32,000 bases of DNA, taken from positions 11,725-43,724 of the forward strand of contig JBHLMI010000024.1 in assembly GCA_048938295.1 (NCBI GenBank). Direction: 5' to 3'. A model generated the notes under the pieces. That model saw only the letters and a list, made by a program, of their open reading frames with translations, searched no databases and was not told where the DNA came from. Position 1 is the first letter of the stretch, and each line of letters starts with the position of its first letter. Positions 5,042 through 25,274 of the stretch are shown here, one piece after another. This DNA is from Promethearchaeota archaeon (GTDB taxonomy: Archaea > Asgardarchaeota > Hermodarchaeia > Hermodarchaeales > Hermodarchaeaceae). The translations under genes were made by a program, and so were the position numbers.

Positions 5042-5419
5042 ATGGCGCTTCGTGATTTCCTCTATCCCTATCTTGAAGTAATTCTCGTTCTTGCGCGAGC
5101 CTTAGATGTGGATGAAGCCCAGGCCGCGTTTGGTAGTCTCTCAGAGGAGTATCAGCAAGTGGCTGCCCGGATACGAATTGCACCACATGACGCGCAACGA
5201 TTGAACCTCAAGGAGGAAGATCACGTTTTGGTAAACTCTGATATAGGTAGTGTGGTAGTGGTTGCGGAGATCCAATCTGATCAACCTGCGGGTATGGTCG
5301 TAATGCATCCTGGACCCTGGGCATTTGCTCTCATCGAAGCAATGATTCCAAGTCAGGGCACGGAGGTCACCATTAAACCAAGCACAGAACCTGTTACACC
5401 CCTTGACCAATTACTCTAA
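5042..5419 (+). CDS. fwdD: FwdD-like molybdopterin-dinucleotide-binding domain protein (divergent)
   Basis: IAPHDAQRLNLKEEDHVLVNSDIGSVVV...PAGMVVMHPGPWAFALI resembles FwdD (MNPED..LG..EGD.V.V.S..G.VVV...P.G.I.IP.GPWAN). The usual N-terminal TGRT is replaced by LARA. Confidence 0.72.
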   Translation: MALRDFLYPYLEVILVLARALDVDEAQAAFGSLSEEYQQVAARIRIAPHDAQRLNLKEEDHVLVNSDIGSVVVVAEIQSDQPAGMVVMHPGPWAFALIEAMIPSQGTEVTIKPSTEPVTPLDQLL

Positions 5420-6864
5420 CGGGACCGATTTTTTGAAGTGGCTTTTTCACTAGCTTTTAAACTGGGTTTCATCTTTTTTTGCGCTTCGTCTTTAACGGCT
5501 GCACACAAAGGTTCGACGCGACCTCGCTCGAAAAGCAAACGTAGCCGCCAATTTCTCCGAATGATCTCTTGGAGTTTCTGAATTCGTGCCTGGGCTTGTG
5601 TTCGACTGATCTTGTCTTCAGACCACTTCTCTGATTTAGTTTGCACCGAAGTTCCGTGTTCTGTGGGAGCGATTTTTATAACACGTTCGTAGATATCATT
5701 TCGTGGGGTGCTTAGGCCTATAAGGTGGTCATAGAACCTGTGAGCTCGTGCTCGTTCCCAATCCCGAGCTTGTTCAATTTGTGATAACGTATAGCTGTCA
5801 CGGCTAACCTTGAGGACCTCTTCGGGGCAGGCGTTTTCACACGCTCCACAGAATACGCAGATAGCTTTGTTGATGGCAATTTTATCTTTATCGCCGGTCG
5901 GATAGATGGCTTTGGTGGGGCAGATGTTAAAACAATTCACGCATCCTGTTGGATCACATTTCTCTAGATTATGAATCTCGATATCACCAGTAAGTGGTAA
6001 GGAGACCTCCAAGGCGTCAAACGGACATTTCTCAGCGCATAGTGTGCAGTCGACGCAGAGCCCGTCATCGATGGTCATAGTTCCTTCGACTTCTGGATCC
6101 CTAATGATCCGGGGCGGTGCGCTTTCACAGGTAACCTTCACGGCATCAGAAGGACAAATCTTCTCGCATAGCCCACAATAATCGCATTGTGTTGTATCGA
6201 CTCGGATACCAACAGCAGGTGCGAAATCTGGAGGTTTTGGTTTTTCCTCCGACCAGTAAATAGTGATGCATTCTGGGCATAGCAATTCACACAATCCGCA
6301 CCATGTGCATTTGTCCTCATCGATGACAATGGTTCCTTTGGCATCTGGATTCCCCCCAGCCACTCGTCTAGCAGCTTTGGGATCCTTGTAACTCACCAGT
6401 TTGGTTTTGGGGGTAACCTTAAGGTCAACAGTGATTGCATCACGGGGACAGAGTTTGGCACATAAAACACATGGCGCACATTTCTCCTCATCGAGCTTAT
6501 GTTTCCCTTTCAGCCGTGAATATTGCCGATCAGCAGGGATATCATCAAATCGGGCCTCAATCGCATTGAATAGGCAGGCAGAATCGCATAAGCCACAGAA
6601 AGTGCATTTATCTTCATCAATCAGAATGAGAGGTGCCTCTTCAAGACGTCCTGCCGCAATTTCTTGCACCGGGCCCAAGGTGATAGCGTCCCAAGGGCAC
6701 GGTAAACAGAGACTACAGCCAACACATCGAGACAGGTCATATTTGAGGTTCTTGTTCAGCAGCGACGTCTTCCAGTTATAACGAATGTTAGTGTCATCTA
6801 AGACTTCACTGGTCACTTTGGGGCGTTCACCGACAATAATACGGTCTCGCTGCACTTTTGTCAT
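5416..6864 (-). CDS. fwdF: FwdF-like polyferredoxin, 8 x [4Fe-4S] motifs plus C-terminal helical extension
   Basis: Eight motifs counted: CVGCSLCLPCP, CTFCGLCDSAC, CAPCVLCAKLCP, CTWCGLCELLCP, CDYCGLCEKICP, CVDCTLCAEKCP, CDPTGCVNCFNICP, CVFCGACENACP. The stop codon overlaps that of the convergent fwdD-like gene. Confidence 0.82.
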   Translation of the reverse strand: MTKVQRDRIIVGERPKVTSEVLDDTNIRYNWKTSLLNKNLKYDLSRCVGCSLCLPCPWDAITLGPVQEIAAGRLEEAPLILIDEDKCTFCGLCDSACLFNAIEARFDDIPADRQYSRLKGKHKLDEEKCAPCVLCAKLCPRDAITVDLKVTPKTKLVSYKDPKAARRVAGGNPDAKGTIVIDEDKCTWCGLCELLCPECITIYWSEEKPKPPDFAPAVGIRVDTTQCDYCGLCEKICPSDAVKVTCESAPPRIIRDPEVEGTMTIDDGLCVDCTLCAEKCPFDALEVSLPLTGDIEIHNLEKCDPTGCVNCFNICPTKAIYPTGDKDKIAINKAICVFCGACENACPEEVLKVSRDSYTLSQIEQARDWERARAHRFYDHLIGLSTPRNDIYERVIKIAPTEHGTSVQTKSEKWSEDKISRTQAQARIQKLQEIIRRNWRLRLLFERGRVEPLCAAVKDEAQKKMKPSLKASEKATSKNRSR

Positions 6865-8383: not shown

Positions 8384-10081
8384 TCATCTGCCAATCTTAC
8401 CAATGGGATATTTTCGTCGGTTGAACCGGTGACCACAGCTGGGGCAATAATTTCGTTTTGCTAACCATTCAAGCATATGATTCGAATGAGCGAGAACTTT
8501 GCACTTCGGACAAAAGAGAACTGGATCATCTTTACCGATGACTTGGCCACAAAATAAGCAAAAATGTGGATGACTGGTACACTTAATACAATGAAGATTA
8601 GACCTTGGGTTCAGTTCAGCACATTTCATGCAAGGTAATTTGCCCCGTAAGATAGGTGACAACTCATCAATTAACCAAGGAGTTAAAAGTGCCCTTTTAG
8701 TTACTCGGCGTTTCGGTTCAACCCAACTTTGTCTGAGCTCTCTTCGACTACGTATTAGCATCAAGTAGGCACCAAGAAGCATGAGAATGGCAAGACCACC
8801 ACCAGTACTAATTAATCTAAAATCTGGTGGACCATATTCAGGTGTTGGAATATATTCCGGACTAGTATCGGGGACTCGTATTGCTAAAGCCATCGAGTGT
8901 GAATTATAGAAGTCCTCAATGTGTCCATCCGTCAAACCTACTATGATGAAATCTCCATTCGGGGCTTGGACTATGGATCGACCTTCATCATCGTTGTCTG
9001 TGCCATAACTCTTCATCCACTGATATTCACCTTCACTGGTTAACCGGATAAGTAACAAATTATTCGATCTATCTGAGGTGTCAAAGGTTTGTCCTGCTAT
9101 CGCATACCCTCCATCTTGGCATTTTGTAATTACATAACCACGATCAAATAATATGCCACCAAATGTTGTCTCCCAAAGGACAATACCATTCCCATGAATT
9201 AAAGCTGCAAAGCCATCGGGAATCATATTCTCGGAATTTGCAGTGCTACCAACAAATGCATACATTTCTGTTTCTGATTCGATGATATCATAACATATAT
9301 CAGGCATTGGACCGCCAAGAGTGTAGTTCCATATTTCGACTCCATTTGCATAGGTCTTTACGATCCAAGCGTCTTCCTCCCCCGCGCCAAAACTTTCAGT
9401 TGAACCTGCTAAATAGAATTCTTGGCTAGGTGTTTCGATAAGAGAATAACAGATATCAGGAGCATTTCCACCATAGGTCCTGTTCCAGAGTTGGGTGCCT
9501 TCTTCGTCAGTGCGGACGAAGAAATAATCAGAATCATCACTGCCATAGTTTCGTTGAAATCCAGCTAATGCGAATCCATCGTTCTGGCATTCAACTAATG
9601 CCATTCCTTGTTCATAAGAAGAGACTCCACCATAAGTTCGATACCACATGGTTTGCCCTTCCTCATCAGTACGAAGGAGCAGGACATCATGATTATTTGA
9701 GGTTGTGTAGCCAATTACAGCAAATCCACCTGGTTGACATTCAACCACTTCCATTCCGCCTTGCGAGATATATTCCTGGAAAAATCTCCGCCATACAACT
9801 TCTCCATTCTCTCCTAACCGCATTAAAAAGATAGACCCGCGACCCTGAAAAATACCGGTTCCCGTGGCTAGATAGCCACCATCGCTACAGGCAATAACTG
9901 AATGGAAGATGTTTTGTCCTATTCCTAAATCCTCAGTCACGGTCCAGATTTGGTCTGAACTCACGAGACTGCTACTTGGGTTATTGAGTGGGGCTGGTTG
10001 TATCGCACTGGATGAAACGAGGTTTAATGCAAGGCTTGATAAAAGCAAACAAATGGTGAGTAGATATCTCAACCTCCGCAA
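8384..10081 (-). CDS. Receptor-like protein: signal peptide, 7-repeat beta-propeller, TM helix, cytoplasmic Zn ribbon and RING-finger-like domain (putative E3 ligase)
   Basis: Seven propeller repeats; TM LISTGGGLAILMLLGAYLMLI (aa 423-443) followed by RSRR; CMKC-x10-CIKC; then CLFC-x12-CPKC-x4-H-x2-H-MLEWL-x5-CPSC (aa 508-549). Confidence 0.8.
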   Translation of the reverse strand: MRRLRYLLTICLLLSSLALNLVSSSAIQPAPLNNPSSSLVSSDQIWTVTEDLGIGQNIFHSVIACSDGGYLATGTGIFQGRGSIFLMRLGENGEVVWRRFFQEYISQGGMEVVECQPGGFAVIGYTTSNNHDVLLLRTDEEGQTMWYRTYGGVSSYEQGMALVECQNDGFALAGFQRNYGSDDSDYFFVRTDEEGTQLWNRTYGGNAPDICYSLIETPSQEFYLAGSTESFGAGEEDAWIVKTYANGVEIWNYTLGGPMPDICYDIIESETEMYAFVGSTANSENMIPDGFAALIHGNGIVLWETTFGGILFDRGYVITKCQDGGYAIAGQTFDTSDRSNNLLLIRLTSEGEYQWMKSYGTDNDDEGRSIVQAPNGDFIIVGLTDGHIEDFYNSHSMALAIRVPDTSPEYIPTPEYGPPDFRLISTGGGLAILMLLGAYLMLIRSRRELRQSWVEPKRRVTKRALLTPWLIDELSPILRGKLPCMKCAELNPRSNLHCIKCTSHPHFCLFCGQVIGKDDPVLFCPKCKVLAHSNHMLEWLAKRNYCPSCGHRFNRRKYPIGKIGR

Positions 10082-10156: not shown

Positions 10157-12601
10157 CTACCGGGATTTTGTCATCACAGTTAACTCTGAACCAAGGGGGC
10201 CAATGTCTGCAATGGATTTGACAAAATCAGTAACCAGTTCAGCAAGCCTGCCACCTTCGGATGAAGCTGTACTAGCAAATAGGATTCGATCACTGTTGAT
10301 CCCCATTTCTTTCAGCAAAGGAAGCAGTTTTTCAACTCGTTCTTTGGCTTTAGCTGTACCTGTGCGGTAATGACAATCGGTTTCATGGCAACCGAGGATT
10401 ACTACTCCATCTGCTCCTTGACTGAAGCTCTCTAAGACTAGCAGAGGATCTAGGCGGCTTGTACATGGTACTCGAAGTGGTATCATTTGCGGGGGATACC
10501 GGATACGGTTTACACCAGCACTATCAGCGGCAGCATACGCACACCAGTTGCAAAGAAAGCCGATAATAACGGGGCGTAGTGAATTGCTTTGACACGCAAC
10601 ATCAACCGCGGAGAGAAGTTGTTGCCGCGTAAATCCTGGTAAATCCAAGGCACCCGTGGGACAAGCAGCGACACATGCTCCGCAGCCCGTACAAGCAAGT
10701 TCATGAATTTGGGGAGTTTCGGAACCTTCAAAGGAGATGGCATTGGCGTCGCACGTCTTTTCACAAAGTCGGCAGCTTTCACACAAGGCTTCGTCTACGA
10801 CCGGAGCATATACTTCCAATTTGATTTTTCGTGGATTCAAAAAGGCAGAAACCTGAGCCGCAGCCAGTCCCGCGTGCGCAACAGTATCAGCGATATCCTT
10901 AGGACCTTGTGATGTACCGGCTAAATAGATACCTGAAGAATAGGTTCCTGTGGGATTAAGCTTAGGATGTTTTTCTAAAAAGAAGTTATTCTCGTCGAGG
11001 GGGATGTTTAGCAACGTCGCTAGCTTCATATTGGATGGTGCTGGATCGACACCGACACTCAATACGACAAGATCAGCTGGAAATTCGATGGGTTCACAGA
11101 GTTCAGTATCTTCTGCGCGAATAAGGAGCTTGTTGGTTTGTGGGTCTTGTTCGATTTCTGCAACTCGACCACGAATGAAGGTGACCCCATGTTCTCGTGC
11201 GGCTCGTTCATACAGCTCCTCGAATCCTTTTCCGAAGGTTCGCATGTCCGTATAGAAGATGAACACTTCAGTATCAGGTTGTGACAAGCGGAGTTGAACT
11301 GCTTCCTTAACTGCATAAGTGCAGCAGATTCGACTACAATAGGGGCGGTTAATGCGAATATCTCGGCTACCGACACACTGAACAAATGCTACGCGTTTGG
11401 GTGGATCCCCTGTCGATGGCCGGACTATAACGCCGTTGGAGGGTCCAACAGGGTTCAGTAACCTTTCGAGTTCAGGTGCTGTAATGACATCGGGGTATTC
11501 TTCATATCCGTATTCCTTGAGGTTTTGGGGATCATAAGGCGTAAATCCTGTGGCGACAATGATTGCCCCAACCTTGAATTTATAGTCACGGTCTGAATCT
11601 TCGAATCGGATGGATTCTTTCTCACACACACCAACACAGGATTGACAGCCTACACAGGTATTCATATCGATGTAGGGTGCAAGGGGGACTGTGTTCGGAT
11701 AGGGACGAATAATCGCTCGTCGCGTTCCAATGCCATATTCATATTCGTTGGGTTCGTCGATGGGGCATATTTCTAGACATTTGTTACACCCATTGCAGGT
11801 CTCTAAATCCACATACCGTGGGTCCTGATGCACTTTGACCTGATAGGCGCCGGGTGTGCCTTGAACCGCCGTCACCTCGCTGAGAGTGAGCACCTCAATT
11901 TTTGGATGATTGGCTACCTGGGTCATAAGGGGTCCGAGGATGCAGAGACTGCAATCGAGGCTTGGGAACAGTTTATCCCATTTAGCCATGTGTCCTCCAA
12001 GAAATCCACTCTTTTCAACGAGTACCACTTCATATCCTGCATTCGCAAGGTGTAAGGCAGATGTTATGCCGGCAGGTCCTCCACCTATAACCAGGACGCG
12101 CTTGGTAATTGGTATGCTCATCGAACTGATAGCTAGTCCATGCTGGGCCATTGTCAACGCCGCATCAATCATCAGTTGTGCTTTAGCGGTTGCTGCAGCG
12201 GGATTATCCCAATGAACCCAACTACATTGTTCCCGGATATTGGCAATGGCGAGATGTCCGCGGTTCAATCCAGCTTCTTCGATAGTCTGGCTCATGAGCT
12301 CTCCGTGTAACCGTGGAGAGCAGGCAGCAACCACGACGTGATTCACCTTTTCCTTGCGGATGGTATCACGAATTTGATTCAGTCCTTGTTCAACGCAGAA
12401 GTGGGCATCTTCAACGACGATGAGTTTGGGTTGCTTTTGATAATGTTCGACGAGAGCATCGATATCCACAATACTGTCGATATTGGATCCGCAGCGACAC
12501 AGAAATAACGCGGTCTTGTCAGAGGATCTAGGTGCAGGTTTGCGGCGAATCTTCTTGGATTGGGATTTCTGTGCTTTCGTTTTTGAGGTCTTTGCCACCA
12601 T
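10157..12601 (-). CDS. hdrA: Heterodisulfide reductase subunit A fused to a C-terminal MvhD [2Fe-2S] domain
   Basis: LFLCRCGSNI, AACSPRLH, NIREQCSWVH, FAD motif GGGPAGITSA, FPSLDCSLCIL, ELERLL, CVGSRD..PYCSRICCTYAVKEA and two ferredoxin pairs. The MvhD part shows GFLCNWCAYAAAD, RVPCTSRLDP and GCHETDCHY. Start placed at ATG 12601 behind a GGTGA SD (the track starts at GTG 12607). Confidence 0.95.
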   Translation of the reverse strand: MVAKTSKTKAQKSQSKKIRRKPAPRSSDKTALFLCRCGSNIDSIVDIDALVEHYQKQPKLIVVEDAHFCVEQGLNQIRDTIRKEKVNHVVVAACSPRLHGELMSQTIEEAGLNRGHLAIANIREQCSWVHWDNPAAATAKAQLMIDAALTMAQHGLAISSMSIPITKRVLVIGGGPAGITSALHLANAGYEVVLVEKSGFLGGHMAKWDKLFPSLDCSLCILGPLMTQVANHPKIEVLTLSEVTAVQGTPGAYQVKVHQDPRYVDLETCNGCNKCLEICPIDEPNEYEYGIGTRRAIIRPYPNTVPLAPYIDMNTCVGCQSCVGVCEKESIRFEDSDRDYKFKVGAIIVATGFTPYDPQNLKEYGYEEYPDVITAPELERLLNPVGPSNGVIVRPSTGDPPKRVAFVQCVGSRDIRINRPYCSRICCTYAVKEAVQLRLSQPDTEVFIFYTDMRTFGKGFEELYERAAREHGVTFIRGRVAEIEQDPQTNKLLIRAEDTELCEPIEFPADLVVLSVGVDPAPSNMKLATLLNIPLDENNFFLEKHPKLNPTGTYSSGIYLAGTSQGPKDIADTVAHAGLAAAQVSAFLNPRKIKLEVYAPVVDEALCESCRLCEKTCDANAISFEGSETPQIHELACTGCGACVAACPTGALDLPGFTRQQLLSAVDVACQSNSLRPVIIGFLCNWCAYAAADSAGVNRIRYPPQMIPLRVPCTSRLDPLLVLESFSQGADGVVILGCHETDCHYRTGTAKAKERVEKLLPLLKEMGINSDRILFASTASSEGGRLAELVTDFVKSIADIGPLGSELTVMTKSR

Positions 12602-12731
12602 AGTCACCGTTACGCCTTACCATTTCTTCTGGCGGCAATATACGTTTTAACAGTTTTTACGTTACAATCCCTCGATTTAATTATTAAGGCAATTGGTAAA
12701 TGAATTCGGCTGGTTGGTGCCGAAGAGATAA

Positions 12732-13244
12732 ATGGAGAAATCAGAACACAATACCTGTAGGCTGTGTCGTACCCAGATGACTGACAAAAAAGTCAACCCA
12801 ATGCAATTGTACAAACTACTTCCGCAAACCAATTGCAAAAAATGTGGGATGACATGCATGGCTTTTGCCACACGATTAGCACTCCGTGATGTCGAACTCA
12901 AAGAATGCACACCCCTCTTCGAAGAGGACCAGTATAAAGACCAACTCGCCAAACTTACAAACCTCATCACCCCTCTCCTCGACACCGAAGAAACGGGTAT
13001 TAAACTTGATGAAACCAAATGCACAGGGTGTGGAAATTGCGTTGTCGTTTGTCCTGTAGATGCAACAGTGGAGCCCGAAACAGCTTCTGGAAAAGCAGCT
13101 CGAACTACAGAAACCGTCTTCCGGGTTGAAGATGGGATTGTCAAAATCATAAATCTAGAGAAATGTCGTCGGTTTCCTCCTGACCGGATGAACTGCCGGG
13201 TCTGTGAACAGGGGTGTTACGTCAAAGCCATAGAAATATGGTGA
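12732..13244 (+). CDS. fwdG: FwdG-like 2x[4Fe-4S] ferredoxin fused to an N-terminal CdhE/RnfB-type Fe-S domain
   Basis: LYKLLPQTNCKKCGMTCMAFATRL...ECTPL N-domain; CTGCGNCVVVCPVDA..PET.SGK...VFRVEDGIVKIINLEKC...CRVCEQGC resembles FwdG. The true start may be ATG 12777. Confidence 0.72.
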   Translation: MEKSEHNTCRLCRTQMTDKKVNPMQLYKLLPQTNCKKCGMTCMAFATRLALRDVELKECTPLFEEDQYKDQLAKLTNLITPLLDTEETGIKLDETKCTGCGNCVVVCPVDATVEPETASGKAARTTETVFRVEDGIVKIINLEKCRRFPPDRMNCRVCEQGCYVKAIEIW

Positions 13245-13278: not shown

Positions 13279-14562
13279 GTGCAGGATACCGTGTGCTGTG
13301 GTTGTTCTGTGGTCTGTGATGACGTCGCGGTAGCGGTGAAGAAAGCAAGTCTGCAATCCCTTGGGTTATGTCGGTTAGGCCATGAGTACTGTAATTCTGT
13401 TTTTAAGAAAAGCCGACTCGCTACATCTCTGCACAAAAATGAGAAAGGAAAACAGCTACCAATACCAATCAAAGATGCCATTCAACACGCGACCAGCCTC
13501 CTTAGAGATAGTGCAAAACCACTGTTTCTGGGCTGGTCCAACAGCACACAAGAAGCAATCCAAACTGGTTTGCAACTAGCCCAAAACCAAAATGGGGTCT
13601 TCGATAGTACCGCGAGTTTTGAATATGGACAAATGCTTGGAGCCAAACTTAAGGGTGGTGAATCAGACCAGGTAAGTCTAGATGATGTTCGCGACTTTGC
13701 AGATCATATCGTCTATTGGGGCGTCAATCCAGCAGAAAGCCACCACCGTCACGCTAGCCGCTTCACCGTCTTTCCCAAAGGTAAGAACATCCCTGAAGGA
13801 CGAGAAAGTCGCATAGTATCCGTCCTCGATGTTCGTAAAACGGAATCAATGGGGTTAGCGAACCATCAGCTTATTCTTTCTCCAATTACAGGAGATGTGG
13901 AATTCCTCCAGACATTAATCGCAGAACTGAAAGGAACAAAGCAACCGTTAGCGGAGAAAGTCGGGGGTGTACCCACAATTGAGTTCCTCAGTTTCGCGAA
14001 GCAGCTCCGCGAAGCCGAGACCATCGCGTTATTTTATGGAAACGGGCTGATACACTCCACTCATTCATCCCAAAGCTTACTCCTTCTGAAGCAACTTGAA
14101 AAAACCCTGAACCGCGGGAAACGCCATTGTTGGACTCTCCCAATGGTTGCCTATTGTAATACTATTGGTTCAGTGAAGGTAAGCCTTGACAGTTCTAACC
14201 TGCCTTTTTCCATTGACTTCAGTTCAAATCCCCCACAGTCCGTTGCGTCAATCTCTAAGAGCTTAACAAAGGGCGAGTTCGATAGCGTAATGGTTACTAA
14301 CTGGGATGCGTTAAGTCTGCTTCCTAAACCAATGGCGCAAGCCATCTCAACACTCCCGTTGATCTCCTTTTCCACCCATCCGACACTAACTACGAAAAAA
14401 TCCACCATTGTCTTTCCCACAGCCTTGACTGGGGCAGAGACCCAAGGAACTACCTACCGAATGGATGGTGCAGCTGTTCTCTTAAAGCCCTTCAAAGAAC
14501 CTCCAAAAGGAGTGCTCACCGAAGAGGAACTCCTTAAGCAACTTCTTACGGCACTACGATGA
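13279..14562 (+). CDS. fwdB: FwdB-like formylmethanofuran dehydrogenase subunit B homologue with substituted active-site residues
   Basis: VCCGCSVVCDD...GLCRLG Fe-S motif; LGWSNSTQEA; ADHIVYWGVNPAESHHRHASRF; GRESRIVSVLDVRKTES; GAETQGTTYRMDG. STASFEYG replaces NTASVCHG, and PMVAYCN replaces PMRGHYN. Confidence 0.88.
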   Translation: MQDTVCCGCSVVCDDVAVAVKKASLQSLGLCRLGHEYCNSVFKKSRLATSLHKNEKGKQLPIPIKDAIQHATSLLRDSAKPLFLGWSNSTQEAIQTGLQLAQNQNGVFDSTASFEYGQMLGAKLKGGESDQVSLDDVRDFADHIVYWGVNPAESHHRHASRFTVFPKGKNIPEGRESRIVSVLDVRKTESMGLANHQLILSPITGDVEFLQTLIAELKGTKQPLAEKVGGVPTIEFLSFAKQLREAETIALFYGNGLIHSTHSSQSLLLLKQLEKTLNRGKRHCWTLPMVAYCNTIGSVKVSLDSSNLPFSIDFSSNPPQSVASISKSLTKGEFDSVMVTNWDALSLLPKPMAQAISTLPLISFSTHPTLTTKKSTIVFPTALTGAETQGTTYRMDGAAVLLKPFKEPPKGVLTEEELLKQLLTALR

Positions 14563-15641: not shown

Positions 15642-15702
15642 TGGAAATTTCATCAGAAGACTTTAAGCACTCTTTCAGGTACTACGACCAACGGTGCTCA
15701 CC

Positions 15703-16497
15703 ATGAAAGTTGCTGTTGCTGGAAAAGGCGGAACCGGAAAAACCCTTGTTGCCGGTACTCTTGCCCGGTTCCTTGGTCGCGAAAACATTCGAGTCCTCGC
15801 GGTTGACGCAGATCCGACCCCAACTCTTGCATCAACGCTTGGAATTCCAGCTGAGGTGGCAGCAAAAATCATTCCACTAACTGAAAATGATGAACTCGTT
15901 GAAGAACGAACTGGGATGGACAAGAAAACCTATGGTGCCATGTTCAAGCTCAACCCTCACGTTTCAGATCTTGCCGAGAAATTCGGAGTCCCTGGACCTG
16001 ACAATACTACCCTTCTTATCGCTGGAACAGTGACCATCGGGGGTTCAGGATGTATGTGTCCAGCTGGCGCCCTCCTCAAAGCGCTCATCCGTTATCTCAT
16101 TGTGGGCAGCGACGAAGCCTTTGTCATGGACCTTGAAGCGGGTATCGAAAACCTTGGTCGTGGAACCTCACGAGGGATGGATGCTCTGATTGTTGTCGTC
16201 GAACCAGGTAAAACCTCGATTAACACTCTCGAACGGATAAAGAAGCTCGCTAATGATATTGGCGTAGAAACAGTGTTTGCAGTAGGTAACAAGGTAATGG
16301 ATGAGACGGACCAAGAAGCCATCGAAAGTACCCTCAAAGCGATGGATGTTCCATTATTAACCGTCATTCCCTTTGACAAGGCCATTCGCCAAGCCAACCT
16401 AAAAGGTCAAGCCCCCATTGATTTTGCCCCCGATTCACCGGCAGTTCAATCCATCAAGGCTATGATTCCCAAACTTCGAAGCCGCTTAAATACTTAG
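15703..16497 (+). CDS. cooC: CooC/AcsF nickel-insertion ATPase for CODH/ACS maturation
   Basis: Deviant Walker A GKGGTGKT, VDADP, Ni-binding GSGCMCP, DLEAGIENLGRGT. Start placed at ATG 15703 behind a GGTG SD (the track uses GTG 15694). Confidence 0.92.
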   Translation: MKVAVAGKGGTGKTLVAGTLARFLGRENIRVLAVDADPTPTLASTLGIPAEVAAKIIPLTENDELVEERTGMDKKTYGAMFKLNPHVSDLAEKFGVPGPDNTTLLIAGTVTIGGSGCMCPAGALLKALIRYLIVGSDEAFVMDLEAGIENLGRGTSRGMDALIVVVEPGKTSINTLERIKKLANDIGVETVFAVGNKVMDETDQEAIESTLKAMDVPLLTVIPFDKAIRQANLKGQAPIDFAPDSPAVQSIKAMIPKLRSRLNT

Positions 16498-17830: not shown

Positions 17831-19024
17831 TTGAGGGCTATTGTGAACGCCACGATTTGGTGCCCTGTTCAAGGACTTATCGAAAATGGGTCAATTCTCT
17901 TTGACCGTGGGAAGATTATCGACGTGGGAAAATCCATTGCTATTCCCAGTAAAACCATAACCATTGATGCGGAAGGCCAATATGTAGTCCCAGGATTCGT
18001 GGAAGCCCATGCCCACCATGGGCTCTTCGATGGAACCATTGGCCCAATGGGACAAGATGGCAACGAAATGACAATGCCTACTACGCCGGAAATGCGTGGG
18101 AAAGACGGCTTCCACCCCTTCGAGAATTCCATTAAAGAAATTCTGAAAGGGGGCGTTACCACCGTAAACACCGGACCAGGTTCTGGCAATGTTATCTCTG
18201 GTGAAGCCTTTGTCTTCAAACCCCTTCTAGAAGCTATAGTGGAAGATATGATTGTCATGTCCCCATCTGGGCTCAAAGTTGCACTCGGTGAAAATCCCAA
18301 ACGTATCCACGGCATTGAGAATAAACGGATGCCTATGACCCGAATGGGAATCGCTGCCCTGCTCCGCAAAACGTTCACTGATGGTCAGAACTATTTAGAT
18401 GAATGGAAGGCTTTCGGAGCTAAAGCAAAAGAATCGAAAGAGAAAGGCGAAGTTATCCCCAACCCACCAAAACGAGACCTAGGGCTAGAAACCATCGCTA
18501 AGGTCCTAAAGCGCGAAATCCCTCTGCATGCCCACTGTCACCGCGCCGATGACATTGCCACCGCGATCCGTATCGCTGAAGAATTCAATCTCCGACTGGT
18601 GCTCATCCATTGCACTGAGGGTCATAAGATAACGAAATTCCTTGCGAAGAAACAATATCCTGCTGTCATTGGCCCAACCATCTTTTGGACGAGTAAACCA
18701 GAGGTCAAGGAAAAGGGATTCAAGACAGCAGTAATCCTGAATGATGCTGGCATTAAAGTTGCCTTACAAACGGATTCGTTGACGCCAATGTTCTATTTTC
18801 CCTTGCTACCCATGTACGCTATTAAGGAGGGCATGAGTCGAGAGGATGCCCTCAGATGCGTGACCCTGAATCCTGCAGAAATCCTCAGTTTACAGGATCG
18901 CATCGGCTCTTTTGAGCCAGGCAAGGATGCAGACATTATCATCTGGTCCGGGGATCCCTTCGATTTCTATAGCGAAGTAACTGAAGCGTATATCAATGGA
19001 ACTAAGGTTCCCTTGGACAAATAG
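17831..19024 (+). CDS. Metal-dependent amidohydrolase (imidazolonepropionase-like subgroup)
   Basis: PGFVEAHAH HxH motif, GGVTT, ALGENPK, HCHRADDI, IHCTEG, QTDS, NPAEILSLQDRIGSFEPGKDADIIIWSGDP; GGTGA SD before the TTG start. Confidence 0.9.
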   Translation: MRAIVNATIWCPVQGLIENGSILFDRGKIIDVGKSIAIPSKTITIDAEGQYVVPGFVEAHAHHGLFDGTIGPMGQDGNEMTMPTTPEMRGKDGFHPFENSIKEILKGGVTTVNTGPGSGNVISGEAFVFKPLLEAIVEDMIVMSPSGLKVALGENPKRIHGIENKRMPMTRMGIAALLRKTFTDGQNYLDEWKAFGAKAKESKEKGEVIPNPPKRDLGLETIAKVLKREIPLHAHCHRADDIATAIRIAEEFNLRLVLIHCTEGHKITKFLAKKQYPAVIGPTIFWTSKPEVKEKGFKTAVILNDAGIKVALQTDSLTPMFYFPLLPMYAIKEGMSREDALRCVTLNPAEILSLQDRIGSFEPGKDADIIIWSGDPFDFYSEVTEAYINGTKVPLDK

Positions 19025-19569: not shown

Positions 19570-21927
19570 TTGACAGAACAAAAACGAGCACGAATTAAAG
19601 CCGATAAACTCGACACTGGATTCGGATCTTTCCGGAATGTCGAAGTGACTATCGGCAGAGTCGTCGACGAAGACTGGGACGAACCTATGGGACCGACTCC
19701 TATGCCTAGTGTTATCACGCTTCGCGACTGGGACCATAAACTCCTCACCCGCTACGAACCCTCCTATATGCCAGCATGCCAGCTATGCTGCCTTTGCACT
19801 TTTGGGAAATGTGACCTGACGGGTGGAAAACGTGGAGCGTGTGGTCTAGATATTAAAGCACAGTCAGCACGTATTGTGTTGGCCGCTGCGAACATCGGGT
19901 GTGCTGCACATCTAGCGCACTCCCGGCATCTTGTCGATCACTTGATTCACGAATTCGGTCCTCGTTATCCACTTACACAAGGCGAAGGTGTGGAGATTGA
20001 AGCACCAGTTTCTCGCTTGGTTACTGGTATTCGTCCACGAACACTTGAGGATGCATCTGCAATTCTAGATTACTGCGAAACCCAGTTGACCCATACCCTT
20101 TCAGCGGTTCATACTGGACAAGAAGGGAGCTGGATAGATTTTGAATCCAAGGCCTTCCACGCGGGTATGGTCGATCAAGTGGGAATGGAAATTGCAGATC
20201 TGGTTCAAATTTCGACATTGGGCTTTCCTCAAGCTGATCCTGAAGCCCCCTTAGTTGAAGCGGGTATGGCATCGATGGACCAATCAAAAGCAAATATCCT
20301 ATGTATTGGGCACAATGTGATACCTGCAGCTGCAATTACTGATTATGCCATGGAACATGGTCTCCAAGACAAAGTTGATGTCAGTGGAATCTGTTGCACA
20401 GCGTGGGATATCACTCGATATGATTCAAAGGCAAAGATTGTTGGTCCAATTTCCTGGCAACTACGCTTTGTCCGCAGCGGCCTTGCAGACGTTGTTGTAG
20501 TGGATGAACAATGTATTCGTACTGACATTCCCGATCATGCGAAGAAGGTCAATACACCAGTAATTGCGACCTGTGATAAATCTTGTATGGGTTTACCTGA
20601 TCGAACCAATGATGATGTCGATGACATTGTTGCAGATCTTGTTTCCTTCAAGGTTCCGGGTGTGTTTATTGGTGATCACCGTAAAGTGGGCGAGGTTGTT
20701 GTGAAAACAGCTCTTGCCGTGAAACCAAAGCGGAAAGGCAAGCATTCTTTACCAAGTAAGAAGAAGATCCAAGAACTCGCTCAAGCCTGCCGTCAGTGTT
20801 CGGAATGCCGACGTGCCTGCCCCAATGACCAACCAGTCATGGAAGCAGTACTTGCGGCCCAAGAAGGCGATTTTGGACCATTGGCAGATGTCTACGATGA
20901 ATGTATAGGCTGCGCTCGATGCGAATCCGCCTGTCCAAACGACTATGAACTGCACAGCTGGATGGTATCTGCCGCAAAAGACAAATGGATGCAAGAAAGT
21001 TTCAAAGTTCGAACAGGTCGAGGAGCTATCAAGGACACTGAAATCCGGTCAGTCGGACAGCCAGTCGTCTTTGGTGAAATTCCAGGCGTTATTGCCCATG
21101 TTGGATGTGCAAATTACCCCGATGGGGGACGAGCTATCCACGACATGTGCGAAGAATTCGCTCAACGACGTTTTATCATTGTTTTGTCTGGATGCGCTGC
21201 CATGACAGTAGGCACTATAAAAGATGAGGAAGGCAAGAGTATATATGAGAGACGCCCAGGCTATTTCGATGCCGGCGGTGTCTTGAATGTGGGATCTTGT
21301 GTCGCAAACCCACACATCGCAGGCGCAGCCATCAAAATCGCCAGCATTTTTGCTAAGCGCAATCTTCGAGGAAACTACGAAGAAATCGCCGATTATATCC
21401 ACAATCGTGTTGGAGCTGTCGGAATTTCATGGGGTGCGATGTCACAGAAAGCAGCCTCCATCGCTGCTGGATTCTGGCGACTAGGTGTTCCCGTTATAGT
21501 TGGTCCCCACGGCACCAAATACCGCCGGATGCTCTTAGGGCGTTCTGACAAACCGAAAGACTGGATGGTATATGATGCCCGAACTGGAAATCAAGTTGAA
21601 GTCGCACCGGGTCCTGAACATCTCTTCTATGCAGTCGAGAACATGGAAGAATGCATGGTATTGACAGCAAAACTAGCTATCAGACCTAACGATACCAGTA
21701 AAGGCCGGGCAATCAAACTCAGCCACTATATCGATTTACATGAACGGTATAAGGGCTACTTCCCTGACGACGTATACAGATATATCCGCCGGGAAACTGA
21801 TATCCCTATCACACTCAAAGACAAAATCCTTACGCAAATGAAGGAGAACAAATGGAAAGAACGCCCAATCCCTGACCCAACCCTGTTGAAACGAATGGTA
21901 TATGGTGGCAAAGGAGGTGGCGAATGA
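19570..21927 (+). CDS. cdhA: CODH/acetyl-CoA decarbonylase-synthase alpha subunit (archaeal Ni-CODH)
   Basis: CQLCCLCTFGKCDL..GACG; C-cluster ligand motifs GHN, GICCT, DEQC, GCAN, SGCAA and GSCV; extra clusters CRQCSECRRACP and CIGCARCESACP. Confidence 0.98.
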   Translation: MTEQKRARIKADKLDTGFGSFRNVEVTIGRVVDEDWDEPMGPTPMPSVITLRDWDHKLLTRYEPSYMPACQLCCLCTFGKCDLTGGKRGACGLDIKAQSARIVLAAANIGCAAHLAHSRHLVDHLIHEFGPRYPLTQGEGVEIEAPVSRLVTGIRPRTLEDASAILDYCETQLTHTLSAVHTGQEGSWIDFESKAFHAGMVDQVGMEIADLVQISTLGFPQADPEAPLVEAGMASMDQSKANILCIGHNVIPAAAITDYAMEHGLQDKVDVSGICCTAWDITRYDSKAKIVGPISWQLRFVRSGLADVVVVDEQCIRTDIPDHAKKVNTPVIATCDKSCMGLPDRTNDDVDDIVADLVSFKVPGVFIGDHRKVGEVVVKTALAVKPKRKGKHSLPSKKKIQELAQACRQCSECRRACPNDQPVMEAVLAAQEGDFGPLADVYDECIGCARCESACPNDYELHSWMVSAAKDKWMQESFKVRTGRGAIKDTEIRSVGQPVVFGEIPGVIAHVGCANYPDGGRAIHDMCEEFAQRRFIIVLSGCAAMTVGTIKDEEGKSIYERRPGYFDAGGVLNVGSCVANPHIAGAAIKIASIFAKRNLRGNYEEIADYIHNRVGAVGISWGAMSQKAASIAAGFWRLGVPVIVGPHGTKYRRMLLGRSDKPKDWMVYDARTGNQVEVAPGPEHLFYAVENMEECMVLTAKLAIRPNDTSKGRAIKLSHYIDLHERYKGYFPDDVYRYIRRETDIPITLKDKILTQMKENKWKERPIPDPTLLKRMVYGGKGGGE

Positions 21928-22475
21928 AAATGATGTCAGCTGAACCCTGGCAAACCGCGGAAGTGTGCGGACCCACAAAAGCCCAAGAACTAAAGAAACC
22001 CGCTGTTGTTGGAGCCCTAATGAAAAAAGCCAAACACCCCCTCATGGTGATTGGAGCTCAAGCACTCACCGAAAAGGCACAGAAAATGTCCATGATCGAC
22101 TATTTCATTGAATTTTCCACTGCCACAAATATTCCAATTGTCGCCACAGCGAATACAATTAAAGCATTCAAAGAGAAAGGCTTTGATAACGTCTACTCCT
22201 TTGGAGCTATGGAAATCATAGGACGACTCCAAGACCCCGAGTGGATGGTTGCCCCGAAGAAAGGTCCTCATGATCTCGTCATGACCTTTGGATTTCCCTA
22301 CTATATGGAATGGCTCATGTTATCTGCGCTCATTAACTTCGCTCCCCAAATCAAGACCGTGACCCTTGGTCGATATTTTCAACCTCACGCAACATGGAGC
22401 TTTCCAAACCTAAAGAAACAAAAATGGAATGAAGCACTCAAAGAAATTCTAACCGCGGCAGGAGGCGCTAAGTAA
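21924..22475 (+). CDS. cdhB: ACDS epsilon subunit
   Basis: AEPWQTAEVCGP, KKAKHPLMVIG, GPHDLVMTFGFPYY, TLGRYFQPHATWSFPN; ATGA overlap with cdhA. Confidence 0.95.
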   Translation: MKMMSAEPWQTAEVCGPTKAQELKKPAVVGALMKKAKHPLMVIGAQALTEKAQKMSMIDYFIEFSTATNIPIVATANTIKAFKEKGFDNVYSFGAMEIIGRLQDPEWMVAPKKGPHDLVMTFGFPYYMEWLMLSALINFAPQIKTVTLGRYFQPHATWSFPNLKKQKWNEALKEILTAAGGAK

Positions 22476-23906
22476 ATGTCATTTGAAGACTTACCAGTTG
22501 CAGTCGGTGTCGTATACGAAGGCGAACGAATTCGGAAAGCCGATATGCAAGTCGAACTTGGTGGACCAAAAATCGATAAAAAATTCGAGTTGGTTCTTAC
22601 CAGAAAGCTGAATGAAATCGAAGATGGCAAAGTTCAAATCATCGGTCCTGACCTCAAAGATCTCGAGGAAGGCGGCAGCCATCCCTTCGGAATTCTCATC
22701 GAAGTCGCTGGCAAAGAGATTGAAAAGGACCTTGAAGGCGTCATTGAACGACATATCCACGAGTATACCAACTTCGTCGAAGGAACAATGCACCTCAATC
22801 AGCGTTACGATATCTGGATTCGTATAAGCAAGAAAACATTCCAGAAAGGCTTCAATTCATTTATGATTCTTGGTCAAGTCTACGAACGCTTATACAAATC
22901 AGAATTACCTATCATCGAAAAAATCCAAGTCACCTTCTACACTGACCCAGCTAAAATAGATGAAATCTATGATACTGCCATCACAACGTATAATGCTCGC
23001 GATGAACGCACCCGAGGCCTCAAAGACGATGAAGTCGACGTCTTTTATGGTTGCACCCTTTGTCAATCGTTTAGCCCCACTCATATGTGCTGTATCACAC
23101 CACAACGATACGCTAACTGTGGTGCGATTAGCTGGTTTGATGGTCGGGCTGCTGCCCGAATCGATCCCAAGGGTCCACTTTTCGCGATTGATAAAGGCGA
23201 AACAATTGATGCAGAGAAGGGAATTTATTCAGGTGTTAATCAAGCCTACAAAGAGAAAACTCTTGGCGCAGTGACAGACGTTATTTTATACACGGCTTTT
23301 GACAACCCCCATACAAGTTGTGGATGCTTTGAAGCTATCGCTTTCATTATCCCTGAAGTTGATGGTCTTGGAATCGTCCATCGAGATTACAAAGGTGCGG
23401 CAGTGAATGGACTTCCTTTTTCCACCATGGCTGATTCTACCGCAGGAGGACGACAAATTCCTGGATTCCATGGATTATCAATCGAATATCTTCGATCACC
23501 AAAATTCTTAACCGTCGATGGAAGCTGGGAACGAATCGTCTGGATACCCAAAGCCATTAAGGATCGGGTCTATGATTTCATGCCAGAAAATATCCGTGAC
23601 ATCATTCCTACAGAAAATGACGTCACAAACATTGACGAACTGAAAACCTACCTCAAAGATCATAACCATCCAATCGTTCATCGGTGGGTCGAAACTGGAG
23701 CCGCTGCACGATTGGAAGAAGAAGAACGTCTAGAAGAGGTCACTCATAGCAGCCAATCAGCTCAGCCCTTCATGATGCCAGGTCAAATGATGACTACAAT
23801 GCCTGCATCAGGCGGAGCGCCAGGTTTCCAGATTATCTTCAAGAACGCGAAGATCTACGCTGAGAAGGTCATTATCAAACGCCTGGATGAGAAGGGTAAA
23901 AAATAG
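22476..23906 (+). CDS. cdhC: Acetyl-CoA synthase, ACDS beta subunit
   Basis: YEGERIRK, FYGCTLCQSFSPTHMC, RYANCGAISW and A-cluster HTSCGCFE. Confidence 0.98.
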   Translation: MSFEDLPVAVGVVYEGERIRKADMQVELGGPKIDKKFELVLTRKLNEIEDGKVQIIGPDLKDLEEGGSHPFGILIEVAGKEIEKDLEGVIERHIHEYTNFVEGTMHLNQRYDIWIRISKKTFQKGFNSFMILGQVYERLYKSELPIIEKIQVTFYTDPAKIDEIYDTAITTYNARDERTRGLKDDEVDVFYGCTLCQSFSPTHMCCITPQRYANCGAISWFDGRAAARIDPKGPLFAIDKGETIDAEKGIYSGVNQAYKEKTLGAVTDVILYTAFDNPHTSCGCFEAIAFIIPEVDGLGIVHRDYKGAAVNGLPFSTMADSTAGGRQIPGFHGLSIEYLRSPKFLTVDGSWERIVWIPKAIKDRVYDFMPENIRDIIPTENDVTNIDELKTYLKDHNHPIVHRWVETGAAARLEEEERLEEVTHSSQSAQPFMMPGQMMTTMPASGGAPGFQIIFKNAKIYAEKVIIKRLDEKGKK

Positions 23907-23921
23907 TTGAGGCGATGAACT

Positions 23922-25274
23922 ATGTCGCCTGAAAAGAAGAAAGGCAAAAGCGAACTTACTTTATCCACCGACAACCCAGAACTGGGTATCCTTGGACCGC
24001 TGGAAGCGATTTTCGGCAAGTTCGAGGAGCTTGAACTCGAAGAAATGACCATCGACGTGGATGAACTCGAGGTTATTGTGCCACCGGGCGCTGGTGGAGG
24101 TGTGTCGGATCAAGCCCGGCAATTCCTCGCCCAGAACGCCTTCGCTGTCCAACAGTTCGCCCAACAAATGCTATCCGCCCTGGGAGTACAACTGCAAAAC
24201 ACAGCTAGTCAAGTTACCATTCCTACCCCGGGACTCTCTATACCAAAGCGCCCCACGCAGCTCTTGAAAGCCCAATTCAAGGCACCCCTATCTGAGTACT
24301 CTGGCCAAATTCGTGAAATCACATTAGGCGCTACTAAAGGCCAAGGGGGTTCACGAAGTAAAACCATCACAGTCGGCGGACACAAAGCTCCAGCTTGGAA
24401 CCTTTTCCAAGCGCCTCCGAAACATCCACCAGTCGTTGCTGCTGACGTCTTTGATATGCGTATCAAACTCGCCAAAGCAGTTCGCATCCACTACGATGAT
24501 GTGATGGATGATCCCGTCGCTTGGGCCCGTTTAGCTATTGATAAATTTGGCGCGGACTTCATTACCTACCACATGATCAGCACCGATCCTCTCCTCGAGA
24601 ATACAAGTGCAAAAGAAGCGATGAAAGGCTTTGAAAACATTCTCCAGAATGTGAAAGTCCCCATCATCGTTGGCGGTTCTGGAGATCCTGCAAAGGACGC
24701 GGAGCTACTTGCGCTGGCGGCTCAAGTCGCGGAAGGTGAACGGGTGCTCCTCGCTTCGGCTACTGTTGATATGTGGGAACCGATCGCCAAAGCCGCGAAA
24801 GCCCATAATCAAATCGTGTTGTCATGGACGAGTATAGATATCAATCAACAAAAGGAGCTCAACCGTCGTCTCCTTGACTATGTCACCCCTGATCAAATCC
24901 TAATTGATCCTACTACAGCAGCACTTGGTTATGGTGCTGAGTATAGTTTTACAATCATGCAACGGATGCGACTAGCTGGATTAATGGGTGATTCTGAGTT
25001 ACAGTTCCCCTTGAGCAGTGGCACCACCAATGCATGGGCAGCACGGGAAGCCTGGATGAAAAATCCAGAACTGGGTCCACGTGAACTACGCGGACCCATC
25101 TGGGAAAGCACCACGGCCCTCATGTTCCTCTTAGCGGGTGTTGATGTCTTTATGATGATGCACCCCGCTGCCATTAAAACTGTCCATGATTTGATCTCTT
25201 GGCTCAGCACTCGGATCGACCGGAAGCGCGAAGACTTTGTTGATTGGACAAAACTCTCGCTACCCGCGAATTAA
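23922..25274 (+). CDS. cdhD: Corrinoid iron-sulfur protein small subunit (ACDS delta)
   Basis: LGATKGQGGSR..ITVGG, DVFD, GGSGDPAKD, IDINQQKELNR, IDPTTAALGYGAEYS, AWAAREAW, MMMHP; long N-terminal extension. Confidence 0.95.
   Translation: MSPEKKKGKSELTLSTDNPELGILGPLEAIFGKFEELELEEMTIDVDELEVIVPPGAGGGVSDQARQFLAQNAFAVQQFAQQMLSALGVQLQNTASQVTIPTPGLSIPKRPTQLLKAQFKAPLSEYSGQIREITLGATKGQGGSRSKTITVGGHKAPAWNLFQAPPKHPPVVAADVFDMRIKLAKAVRIHYDDVMDDPVAWARLAIDKFGADFITYHMISTDPLLENTSAKEAMKGFENILQNVKVPIIVGGSGDPAKDAELLALAAQVAEGERVLLASATVDMWEPIAKAAKAHNQIVLSWTSIDINQQKELNRRLLDYVTPDQILIDPTTAALGYGAEYSFTIMQRMRLAGLMGDSELQFPLSSGTTNAWAAREAWMKNPELGPRELRGPIWESTTALMFLLAGVDVFMMMHPAAIKTVHDLISWLSTRIDRKREDFVDWTKLSLPAN

Follow-up and report, generated by a model that had tools for sequence, protein, structure and literature searches.

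What does a FwdB-type subunit do once the residues at its metal-ligand and CO2-pocket positions have been replaced? This question is raised by B', a gene in the 32,000-nucleotide stretch of DNA analyzed here (the window). An initial annotation, made from the sequence without database searches, had proposed that its product is either a noncatalytic subunit serving as an electron wire or an enzyme with a new metal ligand. Asgard and Bathyarchaeia-type archaea have an archaeal Wood-Ljungdahl pathway without methanogenesis, in which both CODH/acetyl-CoA synthase (CODH/ACS) and Fwd require very low-potential electrons.

Identity and structure of B'

The frame of B' begins with a GTG codon and stays open over its full length of 427 amino acids. 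In a phmmer comparison, it matched FwdB of Methanothermobacter wolfeii (5t5i_B) from end to end (E = 5e-53; residues 1 to 426 on 4 to 425). The FwdB model TIGR03129 also matched it over the full length, at 294.2 bits, which does not reach the curated cutoff of 327.8 bits, and no Pfam family was found for it at an E value of ≤0.01. The CxxCxxxC...C motif is intact, and all four cysteines are present in each full-length member of the clade described below. The alignment with 5t5i_B and this conservation bear out the earlier view that the open reading frame is full length and that the N-terminal Fe-S motif has been kept.

All four catalytic residues of FwdB (Cys118, His119, Arg288, and His290) are substituted in B'. 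The phmmer alignment places the stretch “dstasfEYgq” of B' on “dntasvCHgp” of 5t5i_B and “lpmVAYCntig” on “ipmRGHYnvtg,” confirming the claim that E115-Y116 and V290-A-Y292 replace the ligand and CO2-site residues of the solved FwdB; no Cys, His, or Arg was restored at the catalytic positions. As had also been claimed, codon 115 reads directly as GAA (positions 13621 to 13623), and therefore recoding of UGA to Sec at position 115 is ruled out. The stretch from 290 to 293 varies inside the clade (V/I/F, A/T/V, Y/L/H, and C/A/S, in that order). Cys293, earlier suggested as an alternative ligand, was dropped as a candidate because the position is not conserved, several members of the clade having Ala or Ser there.

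The AF2 model of B' (pLDDT 96.3) matched FwdB structures in Foldseek with TM scores of 0.90 to 0.93 and FhcB with 0.63 to 0.65; the matches also included Nqo3/NuoG and subunits of the Nfn-ABC/StnABC type, at 12 to 18% identity. FhcB appeared by fold only and was absent from the PDB sequence-search matches of either FwdB copy of the genome. According to Foldseek and the complex model, B' corresponds to domains I to III of the MopB fold together with a separate FwdD-type cap, the protein D' (Table 1). Its length is about that of FwdB and, unlike FhcB, it has no loop insertions able to fill the pterin cavity, which counts against a relay function. The modeled B'-D' complex reached an ipSAE of 0.93, versus 0.17 for the best of three controls, passing a mark that solved complexes reach in 51 of 78 cases and mismatched pairs in 2 of 108; this pass may mirror likeness only, because FwdB-FwdD complexes have already been solved. 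At least 97% of the contacts were common to three runs, the partner had a pLDDT of 90, and conservation was 0.72 at the modeled interface versus 0.71 elsewhere.

Gene module, phylogeny, and distribution

TABLE 1 Coordinates of the features of the B' locus within the window
Feature	Position	Strand	Description and evidence
B' (FwdB paralogue, Glu-Tyr clade)	13279..14562	+	427 aa; TIGR03129, 5t5i_B alignment, AF2/Foldseek
[4Fe-4S] motif, codons of Cys6/Cys9/Cys13/Cys31	13294..13371	+	Alignment with FwdB cluster cysteines
Glu115-Tyr116 (GAA TAT)	13621..13626	+	At Cys/Sec118-His119 metal-ligand position; codons read directly
Val290-Ala-Tyr292-Cys293	14146..14157	+	At Arg288-Gly-His290-Tyr; 5t5i_B alignment
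G'	12777..13244	+	CFeSP/RnfB-type [4Fe-4S] domain (PF04060) and FwdG-like 2x[4Fe-4S] ferredoxin; Pfam, PDB match
HdrA-MvhD fusion, HdrA2 type	10157..12607	-	NF040770, 918 bits; PF02662 (MvhD), E = 7e-44
F', FwdF-like polyferredoxin	5416..6864	-	NF042909 (FwdF), 221 bits; multiple Fer4 domains
D', FwdD-like capping domain	5042..5419	+	125 aa; PF01568, E = 6e-13; FwdD model, 43.6 bits
CooC-like CbiA/MinD-family ATPase	15694..16497	+	Pfam CbiA; downstream of B'
Amidohydrolase	17831..19024		A few genes downstream of B'
cdhA, cdhB, cdhC, cdhD (archaeal CODH/acetyl-CoA synthase)	19570..25274	+	Pfam Prismane, CO_dh, CdhC, CdhD

The gene order D'-F'-HdrA-G'-B' is identical in loci L003 to L006 and L015 to L017. 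G', which among PDB entries matches FwdG best (5t5i_G, E = 9e-12), lies directly upstream of B', as it also does in L003, L005/6, L015, L016, and L017; the HdrA-MvhD gene diverges from the G'-B' pair and is found in every related locus, and F' adjoins HdrA in related loci too. The CooC-like gene likewise follows B' in L003, L005, and L016, and the cdh genes adjoin the module in L003, L005, L015, and L016. D' is the predicted partner of B', and the whole genome holds only two Molydop_binding domains. Both fwdA and fwdC are absent from the window and from every related locus, no ftr was found among the conserved module neighbors in related loci, and no HdrB/C, hydrogenase, or Fdh genes are found in the module.

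To place B' among its homologues, we built a quick IQ-TREE phylogeny of 90 sequences with SH-aLRT supports. B' falls into a distinct group of FwdB paralogues from Asgard archaea and Thermoproteota, defined here as “group 2” (split supported at 100), whose members are always accompanied by FwdD-like, FwdF-like, and FwdG-like proteins and by HdrA-MvhD and usually lie beside cdhABCD. Within it, the supported clade of B', with Glu-Tyr at positions 115 and 116 (support 100), is sister to an Asgard clade with Gly-Leu (98) and nested among paralogues that bear the Cys and lack the Arg. The ligand pair of the relatives sharing the module is Cys-His in Thermoproteota, Gly-Leu in the sister Asgard clade, and Glu-Tyr in the clade of B', and the module is kept in all three, with its order conserved over two phyla. 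The function of the module therefore survives any residue at the ligand position.

Glu-Tyr is present in all 56 homologues, which are 51 to 81% identical, and is confined to one Asgard family, where it occurs in 17 of 18 sampled genomes, compared with none of 282 elsewhere. In P0121, an unrelated representative, the pair is Glu-His and the Arg is retained. Even at this low overall identity, 93 positions are conserved to at least 98% across the 56 sequences of the clade, and every genome found to carry B' has it as an unbroken frame of full length. The substitutions are thus clade-wide, neither private to one genome nor the product of simple decay, which the initial annotation had named among the outcomes that would contradict it. 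Canonical FwdB is also present in almost every B'-bearing genome, which makes the co-occurrence of B' with Moco biosynthesis uninformative. In the genome of the window, contig C4 carries canonical fwdD and fwdB as a pair, with the motifs SVCHG and PLRGH (FwdB, 511 bits to TIGR03129; FwdD, 110.6 bits to the FwdD model), so that the canonical second fwdB that the initial annotation proposed to look for does exist, and fwdA and fwdC occur elsewhere in one copy each (contigs C13 and C49).

Evolution and probable role of B' and D'

Identity within the same pairs of genomes is 89 to 95% for canonical FwdB, versus 56 to 80% for B', which evolves 4 to 5 times faster than the canonical copy of the same genomes. 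Among the module parts, B' (69/57%) and D' (66/59%) are the fastest, versus F' (84/76), HdrA (82/79), and G' (86/86). Profile scores drop in parallel, from 511 through 374 to 392 down to 294/268 bits for the B subunit and from 110 through 74 down to 52/44 bits for the D subunit. In both Cys-less clades, the B subunit and its D partner lack further residues that Cys-bearing relatives retain. An acidic residue (D or E) closes the strand at position 365 in 34 of 42 Cys-bearing sequences but in none of the 56 Glu-Tyr and none of the 16 Gly-Leu sequences, and a change of Pro344 to Ala accompanies the loss of the Cys in B'. In D', a QG motif and a loop Lys are retained in four of five Cys-associated proteins and gone from both Cys-less clades. 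The Asn of the D' motif GPWAN, present in all five Cys-associated proteins, is missing in the Gly-Leu clade and in genus g1; in one Glu-Tyr genome (G022), D' retains it, which counts against the relay function.

The same is true of the invariant MopB fold residues still found in B' (N150-P151, H155, D184/R186, D343, and R394/D396) and of the 40 of 73 canonical near-invariant columns that it retains. Most other Cys-less homologues keep the same fold residues, however, so that these do not discriminate; only seven columns divide Cys-bearing from other Cys-less homologues, and the Glu-Tyr clade retains four of them. With pterin-contact residues assigned by topology and comparison, these sequence comparisons point toward a loss of W/Mo bis-pterin guanine dinucleotide binding by B', if not decisively.

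On balance, we consider it probable that B' belongs to an Hdr-type complex as an Fe-S relay or scaffold subunit that does not reduce CO2. Its most likely role is to pass on electrons, which is favored because an Hdr-polyferredoxin module adjoins the acetyl-CoA synthase genes and the ligand has been replaced. Of the two possibilities initially offered, the evidence leans to the noncatalytic wire because of the co-losses in B' and D', the fast evolution of both, and the Gly in the sister clade; what fell away were the “Fhc-like” label and the Cys293 ligand. A tentative alternative is that B'D' binds one or two W/Mo pterins with Glu115 as a new ligand and catalyzes a reaction of neither CO2 nor formate, in a pocket made more hydrophobic by Tyr116, Val290, and Tyr292 and with HdrA supplying low-potential electrons via F' and G'. 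The invariance of Glu115-Tyr116 in a fast-evolving protein argues for it and against a relay, and the carboxylate is reminiscent of NarG-type enzymes, in which Asp is the ligand; a ligand of this kind is documented for one branch of MopB (PMC10100899, Table 1). Further support comes from the full-length FwdB architecture without pocket-filling insertions, from the canonical columns kept, from the Glu-His of P0121, and from the retention and conservation of a dedicated D' whose known counterpart FwdD caps the pterin and whose predicted binding to B' may reflect likeness only. Against a Glu ligand stand the Gly at that position in a sister clade with the same module, the loss of the acidic residue 365 and Pro344 in B' and of QG and Lys in D', and a pace of evolution in B' and D' that is 4 to 5 times that of canonical FwdB, also exceeds that of the Fe-S partners, and would be unusual for a catalytic metallo-subunit. 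The kept residues are common to most other Cys-less homologues, and a MopB survey does not mention a Glu ligand. That B'D' is a working W/Mo pterin enzyme with Glu for Cys/Sec, performing a low-potential reaction that electron bifurcation by HdrA would power and that would be tied to the Asgard acetyl-CoA pathway, appears doubtful to us.

B' could also be an archaeal analogue of FhcB that replaces FwdB alongside FwdA and FwdC, giving a formyl-methanofuran hydrolase/synthase that works without redox chemistry and has free formate as its product or substrate. We judge this quite improbable, even though FhcB is itself a Cys-less FwdB homologue scaffolding FwdA/C homologues (PMC6926001) and fwdA and fwdC are single genes in a genome with two fwdB-like ones. 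The amidohydrolase gene downstream, conserved in loci of the Glu-Tyr clade, would fit such an enzyme, but its product resembles FwdA over its first ~60 residues only. The conserved neighbors are HdrA-MvhD, F', and G' and never fwdA, fwdC, or ftr, and by fold B' matches FhcB poorly compared with FwdB. The “Fhc-like” solution envisaged in the initial annotation does not fit, because FhcB has neither an Fe-S domain nor FwdD (PMC6926001), whereas B' has both and stands in an HdrA/polyferredoxin/CODH-ACS context instead of one of FwdA/C and Ftr. A functionless fwdB duplicate decaying under relaxed selection would explain why B' outpaces canonical FwdB and has lost all catalytic residues; it is hardly credible in view of the intact frames, the 93 conserved positions, the gene order kept across two phyla, and the confident AF2 model, and conservation and synteny rule out simple decay.

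If B' is indeed a relay or scaffold, it would be a diverged FwdB paralogue that has lost CO2 reduction, has kept the FwdB fold and the [4Fe-4S] cluster, and is paired with its own FwdD-like cap D'. Together, HdrA-MvhD, F', G', B', and D' would form one module beside the CODH/ACS genes, to which the gene neighborhood suggests that it is possibly linked. By analogy with the Hdr-Fmd/Fwd supercomplexes of methanogens, F' and G' would carry electrons from the flavin at which HdrA bifurcates them to the cluster of B'. The former W/Mo-pterin site of B'D' would be degenerate in the Asgard family, with Glu115-Tyr116 stabilizing the remodeled pocket or the B'-D' interface, and B'D', with its Fe-S cluster, would not be a catalyst but a terminal relay or a scaffold for docking, with CODH/ACS as a possible partner.

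Relation to known systems

B' is like FwdB/FmdB (5T5I chain B) in its fold, [4Fe-4S] motif, separate FwdD-type cap, and FwdF/FwdG-type neighbors but has Glu-Tyr for Cys118-His119, neither Arg288 nor His290, and no fwdA or fwdC in its cluster. As in the methanogen Hdr-Fmd/Fwd supercomplexes (7BKB; PMC13580544, PMC13518236), the genes for HdrA, a polyferredoxin, and FwdB/D-type subunits are grouped, and in the solved complexes the polyferredoxin links the low-potential branch of HdrA to FwdB (PMC13580544, PMC13518236). The B' module differs from these in lacking FwdA/C, HdrB/C, and a hydrogenase or Fdh, in having an end point without CO2-reducing residues, and in its association with CODH/ACS in nonmethanogens.

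Cys-less MopB subunits of redox complexes are already known, namely, FhcB (PMC6926001), Nqo3 (PMC10100899), and an HdrA-linked “Molybdop” protein of Methanosarcinales (PMC12054007); these precedents favor the relay or scaffold role, and B' is a further variant. FhcB (6S6Y; PMC6926001), which serves as a scaffold, is a FwdB homologue from which the Cys ligand, His119, and Arg288 have disappeared; its loops fill the pterin site, whereas B' has a cluster, a cap, and FwdB-like loop lengths. It is encoded in fhcBADC of aerobic methylotrophs with an Ftr homologue, whereas the neighbors of B' are HdrA-MvhD, F', G', CooC, and cdh. The “Molybdop” protein of Methanosarcinales/ANME-2 (PMC12054007) is a MopB protein that is encoded alongside hdrA and mvhD, has no equivalent of Cys118, and is predicted to be free of Mo/W-bisPGD; it differs from B' in belonging to another clade (reported near FdhG/FhcB), in its cluster hdrABC-mvhD-fdhB, in having no Glu-Tyr, and in its occurrence in methane-metabolizing Euryarchaeota. 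The C-terminal domain of Nqo3/NuoG in complex I and the related subunits of the bifurcating Nfn-ABC/StnABC enzymes are likewise pterin-less MopB folds within Fe-S electron-transfer enzymes, but they are distant from B' in sequence, are fused to other Fe-S domains, and have no separate cap subunit. In our literature search, we found no description of the Asgard clade of B' or of a Glu-ligated MopB enzyme.

The conserved HdrA-polyferredoxin-FwdGBD-like module beside cdh is a concrete candidate for the supply of low-potential electrons, and the Glu-Tyr clade shows that the CO2-reducing site at its FwdB-type end point is dispensable. As an Fe-S relay, B' would join Nqo3 and FhcB as a further, independent example of a subunit of molybdoenzyme origin turned into wiring or scaffold, whereas a pterin bound with a Glu ligand would extend the coordination chemistry of the DMSO-reductase superfamily. 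Genes of the B' type are widely labeled “formylmethanofuran dehydrogenase subunit B” and taken as evidence of CO2 reduction.

Active-site replacements in B' and their conservation

The FwdB model TIGR03129 matched the protein B' over its whole length with 294 bits, below the curated cut-off of 327.8 bits, while no Pfam family matched it at E ≤ 0.01. Its closest solved relatives are FwdB/FmdB chains, the best being 5t5i_B from M. wolfeii (E 5e-53). The residue-level alignment with this chain sets Glu115-Tyr116 of B' on Cys118-His119 of FwdB and Val290-Ala-Tyr292-Cys293 opposite Arg288-Gly-His290-Tyr; codon 115 is GAA (13621-13623), and the four cluster cysteines (6, 9, 13, and 31) are all in place. 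Thus, the initial annotation, which had described a full-length FwdB homologue with these replacements, a GAA codon, and an intact N-terminal Fe-S motif, was correct in every checkable detail.

A search of 5.8 billion proteins yielded 56 near-full-length homologues of B' (51 to 81% identity), every one of which carries TAS[FLY]-Glu-Tyr-Gly. The region around Arg288 varies among them, and several have Ala or Ser in place of Cys293. Across this set, 93 positions are at least 98% conserved, which, together with the invariant Glu-Tyr pair, excludes decay of B'. In a 301-genome sample of the phylum, 17 of the 18 genomes belonging to the same family as the window had a member of the Glu-Tyr clade; the other 282, searched at E ≤ 1e-90, had none. 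The nearest proteins from metagenome-assembled genomes (MAGs) are publicly labeled with Asgard names (Promethearchaeota, Hermodarchaeota, Thorarchaeota, and Hodarchaeota).

The same genome (66 contigs, 2.5 Mb, 91.6% complete) also encodes the canonical second FwdB that the initial annotation had proposed to look for. It lies on contig C4 (511 bits), carries SVCHG and PLRGHFN, and has a canonical FwdD (110.6 bits) directly upstream; fwdA and fwdC occur once each, on other contigs. Exactly two Molydop_binding (FwdD-type) domains are present, the canonical one and the diverged one of D', the FwdD-like cap encoded in the window.

A second half of the FwdB family and its gene module

Among 1.84 billion representatives we found 834 homologues, many with the CxxCxxxC motif but without the ligand Cys. 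A quick IQ-TREE search (LG+G4, 90 sequences) split the family deeply in two (SH-aLRT, 100). The canonical Cys-His/Arg-Gly-His proteins, with the C4 copy among them, form one half. The other, here called group 2, includes the Glu-Tyr clade (SH-aLRT, 100) and, as its sister, a clade of other Asgard archaea with Gly-Leu, the two being joined with a support of 98. Outside both Cys-less clades, group 2 consists of Cys-His proteins of Thermoproteota and further Asgard families in which Arg288 is already replaced by Ser, Ala, or Ile.

In the Gly-Leu clade (L016:10001-11290, P0062-P0073, and L018 from genome G238), the Cys-His position is occupied by Gly-Leu or Gly-Ala, and the Arg site reads PMWH.PN. 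Cys-His or Cys-Gln paralogues without Arg288 were seen at L015:5389-11263 (a Thermoproteota-labeled MAG), L017:1190-7122, L019, L020, and L022. The two that were scored, from L015 and L017, exceed the TIGR03129 cut-off and so are probably annotated as true FwdB. P0121, a distant representative of the family, has Glu-His at the ligand position with the Arg-Gly-His region kept (VEHGA ... PMRGH), a second, independent Cys-to-Glu change in an otherwise catalytic-looking setting.

The group 2 loci examined share a gene order: a FwdD-like gene, genes for a FwdF-like polyferredoxin and an HdrA-MvhD fusion (opposite strand), a gene for a small Fe-S protein, and that for the FwdB-like protein, usually followed by a CooC-like ATPase with cdhABCD(E) adjoining. 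This order was found in Glu-Tyr loci L003-L006, in Gly-Leu locus L016, where the module lies directly upstream of cdhABCDE, and in L015 and L017, the two neighborhoods read around Cys-keeping paralogues. The exception is Glu-Tyr locus L007, whose module genes are scattered and which has no FwdD-like, polyferredoxin, or cdh genes within the stretch examined. None of the group 2 clusters examined contains fwdA, fwdC, hdrB, or hdrC.

Features of the module and its surroundings in the window
Feature	Position	Strand	Description
D'	5042-5419		FwdD-like, diverged Molydop_binding domain
F'	5416-6864		FwdF-like polyferredoxin
Tandem ORF	6933-8303	-	Weak beta-propeller repeat matches
Tandem ORF	8384-10081	-	Weak beta-propeller repeat matches
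HdrA-MvhD	10157-12607		Fusion
157-aa ORF	12677-13150	-	No family match
G'	12777-13244		CFeSP/RnfB-type Fe-S domain and FwdG-like ferredoxin
B' (P0001)	13279-14562	+	427 aa; translation, TIGR03129, 5t5i_B alignment
cooC	15694-16497		CooC-like ATPase
Amidohydrolase	17831-19024	+	397 aa
cdhABCD	19570-25274

The best PDB match of G' is FwdG (E 9e-12). In solved methanogen supercomplexes, a polyferredoxin brings low-potential electrons of HdrA to FwdB (PMC13518236, PMC13580544); by analogy, the module looks like this wire, but with a changed end-point. Its gene neighborhood suggests coupling to CODH/ACS.

Related loci have one unannotated gene (460 to 524 aa) where the window has the two tandem ORFs between polyferredoxin and hdrA, so their place may be that of a conserved module neighbor. 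The amidohydrolase, a few genes downstream of B', is conserved in Glu-Tyr loci (85% identity in L003, 74% in L005), and its likeness to FwdA is limited to the N-terminal metal-binding stretch. The 157-aa ORF antisense to the G' gene is probably spurious; L003 has an unrelated 157-aa gene in its hdrA-G' gap, for which the window has no room.

The pterin site and the role of B'

Cys-less MopB subunits are established in FhcB and Nqo3 (PMC6926001, PMC10100899), and in Methanosarcinales a Cys-less "Molybdop" protein linked to HdrA is predicted not to hold the cofactor (PMC12054007). FhcB has lost the Fe-S domain and FwdD, and loops fill its site (PMC6926001), whereas B' retains the cluster and a D' of its own. 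An FhcB-like role with FwdA/C would suit a genome with a single copy of each gene, but neither the Fe-S cluster nor the gene context fits, and we consider it improbable.

The main alternative to our reading, possible though less favored, is that B' still works as a pterin enzyme, with Glu as the ligand and a new chemistry. The Glu-Tyr pair is invariant, the cap is retained, and the pocket appears unfilled: B' has the length of FwdB without insertions, and its AF2 model (pLDDT 96.3) has a TM score of 0.90 to 0.93 to FwdB versus 0.63 to 0.65 to pterin-less FhcB. Complex modeling predicts that D' binds B', with an ipSAE of 0.93 versus 0.17 for the best of three controls, at least 97% of contacts common to the runs, and a partner pLDDT of 90. 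The prediction passes a threshold that 51 of 78 solved complexes and 2 of 108 mismatched pairs also attain, a pass that may only reflect likeness because FwdBD is already solved. B' also keeps 40 of 73 canonical near-invariant columns, which are uninformative between loss and retention because most other Cys-less homologues keep those residues too.

Several observations point to loss of the site. The ligand position is Gly in the sister clade, which works in the same module. Pterin-contact residues of B' and D' were assigned by comparison rather than from a structure. A strand-end acidic residue at position 365, expected from Rossmann-type topology and model secondary structure to bind the nucleotide ribose, occurs as D/E in 34 of the 42 Cys-bearing proteins but in none of the 56 Glu-Tyr or 16 Gly-Leu proteins, and Pro344 changes with it. 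In D', a QG motif and a loop Lys, present in canonical D and four of five Cys-associated group 2 proteins, are gone in both Cys-less clades; the Asn of GPWAN (canonical D and 5/5) is missing from the Gly-Leu clade and, within the Glu-Tyr clade, from genus g1, whereas genome G022 retains it. B and D profile scores drop in parallel, and both proteins diverge faster than their module partners (identity of 69/57% for B' and 66/59% for D' versus 74 to 92% for F', HdrA, G', CooC, and Cdh subunits). In the same pairwise genome comparisons, identity is 89 to 95% for canonical FwdB but only 56 to 80% for B'. On balance, we lean toward B' having given up CO2 reduction and serving an Hdr-type complex as a relay or scaffold subunit with an Fe-S cluster; Glu115-Tyr116 would then be kept for the structure of a remodeled pocket or interface.

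A survey of MopB proteins tallied 83 FwdB homologues in Asgard archaea and mentioned briefly that the Cys is missing from some FwdB hits; it neither describes the Glu-Tyr clade nor mentions a Glu ligand. We class B' as a Glu-Tyr derivative, confined to one family, of a FwdB paralogue group that is widespread, undescribed, and associated with HdrA and CODH/ACS.

Outside the module, the genome encodes [NiFe] hydrogenases, several CCG (HdrB-type) proteins, and additional MvhD domains. Its MvhD domains number six (contigs C23, C36, C51, and C66 noted), among them two more HdrA-MvhD-type fusions that adjoin genes for CCG (HdrB-like) proteins or [NiFe] hydrogenases. The organism therefore possesses several Hdr systems in parallel.
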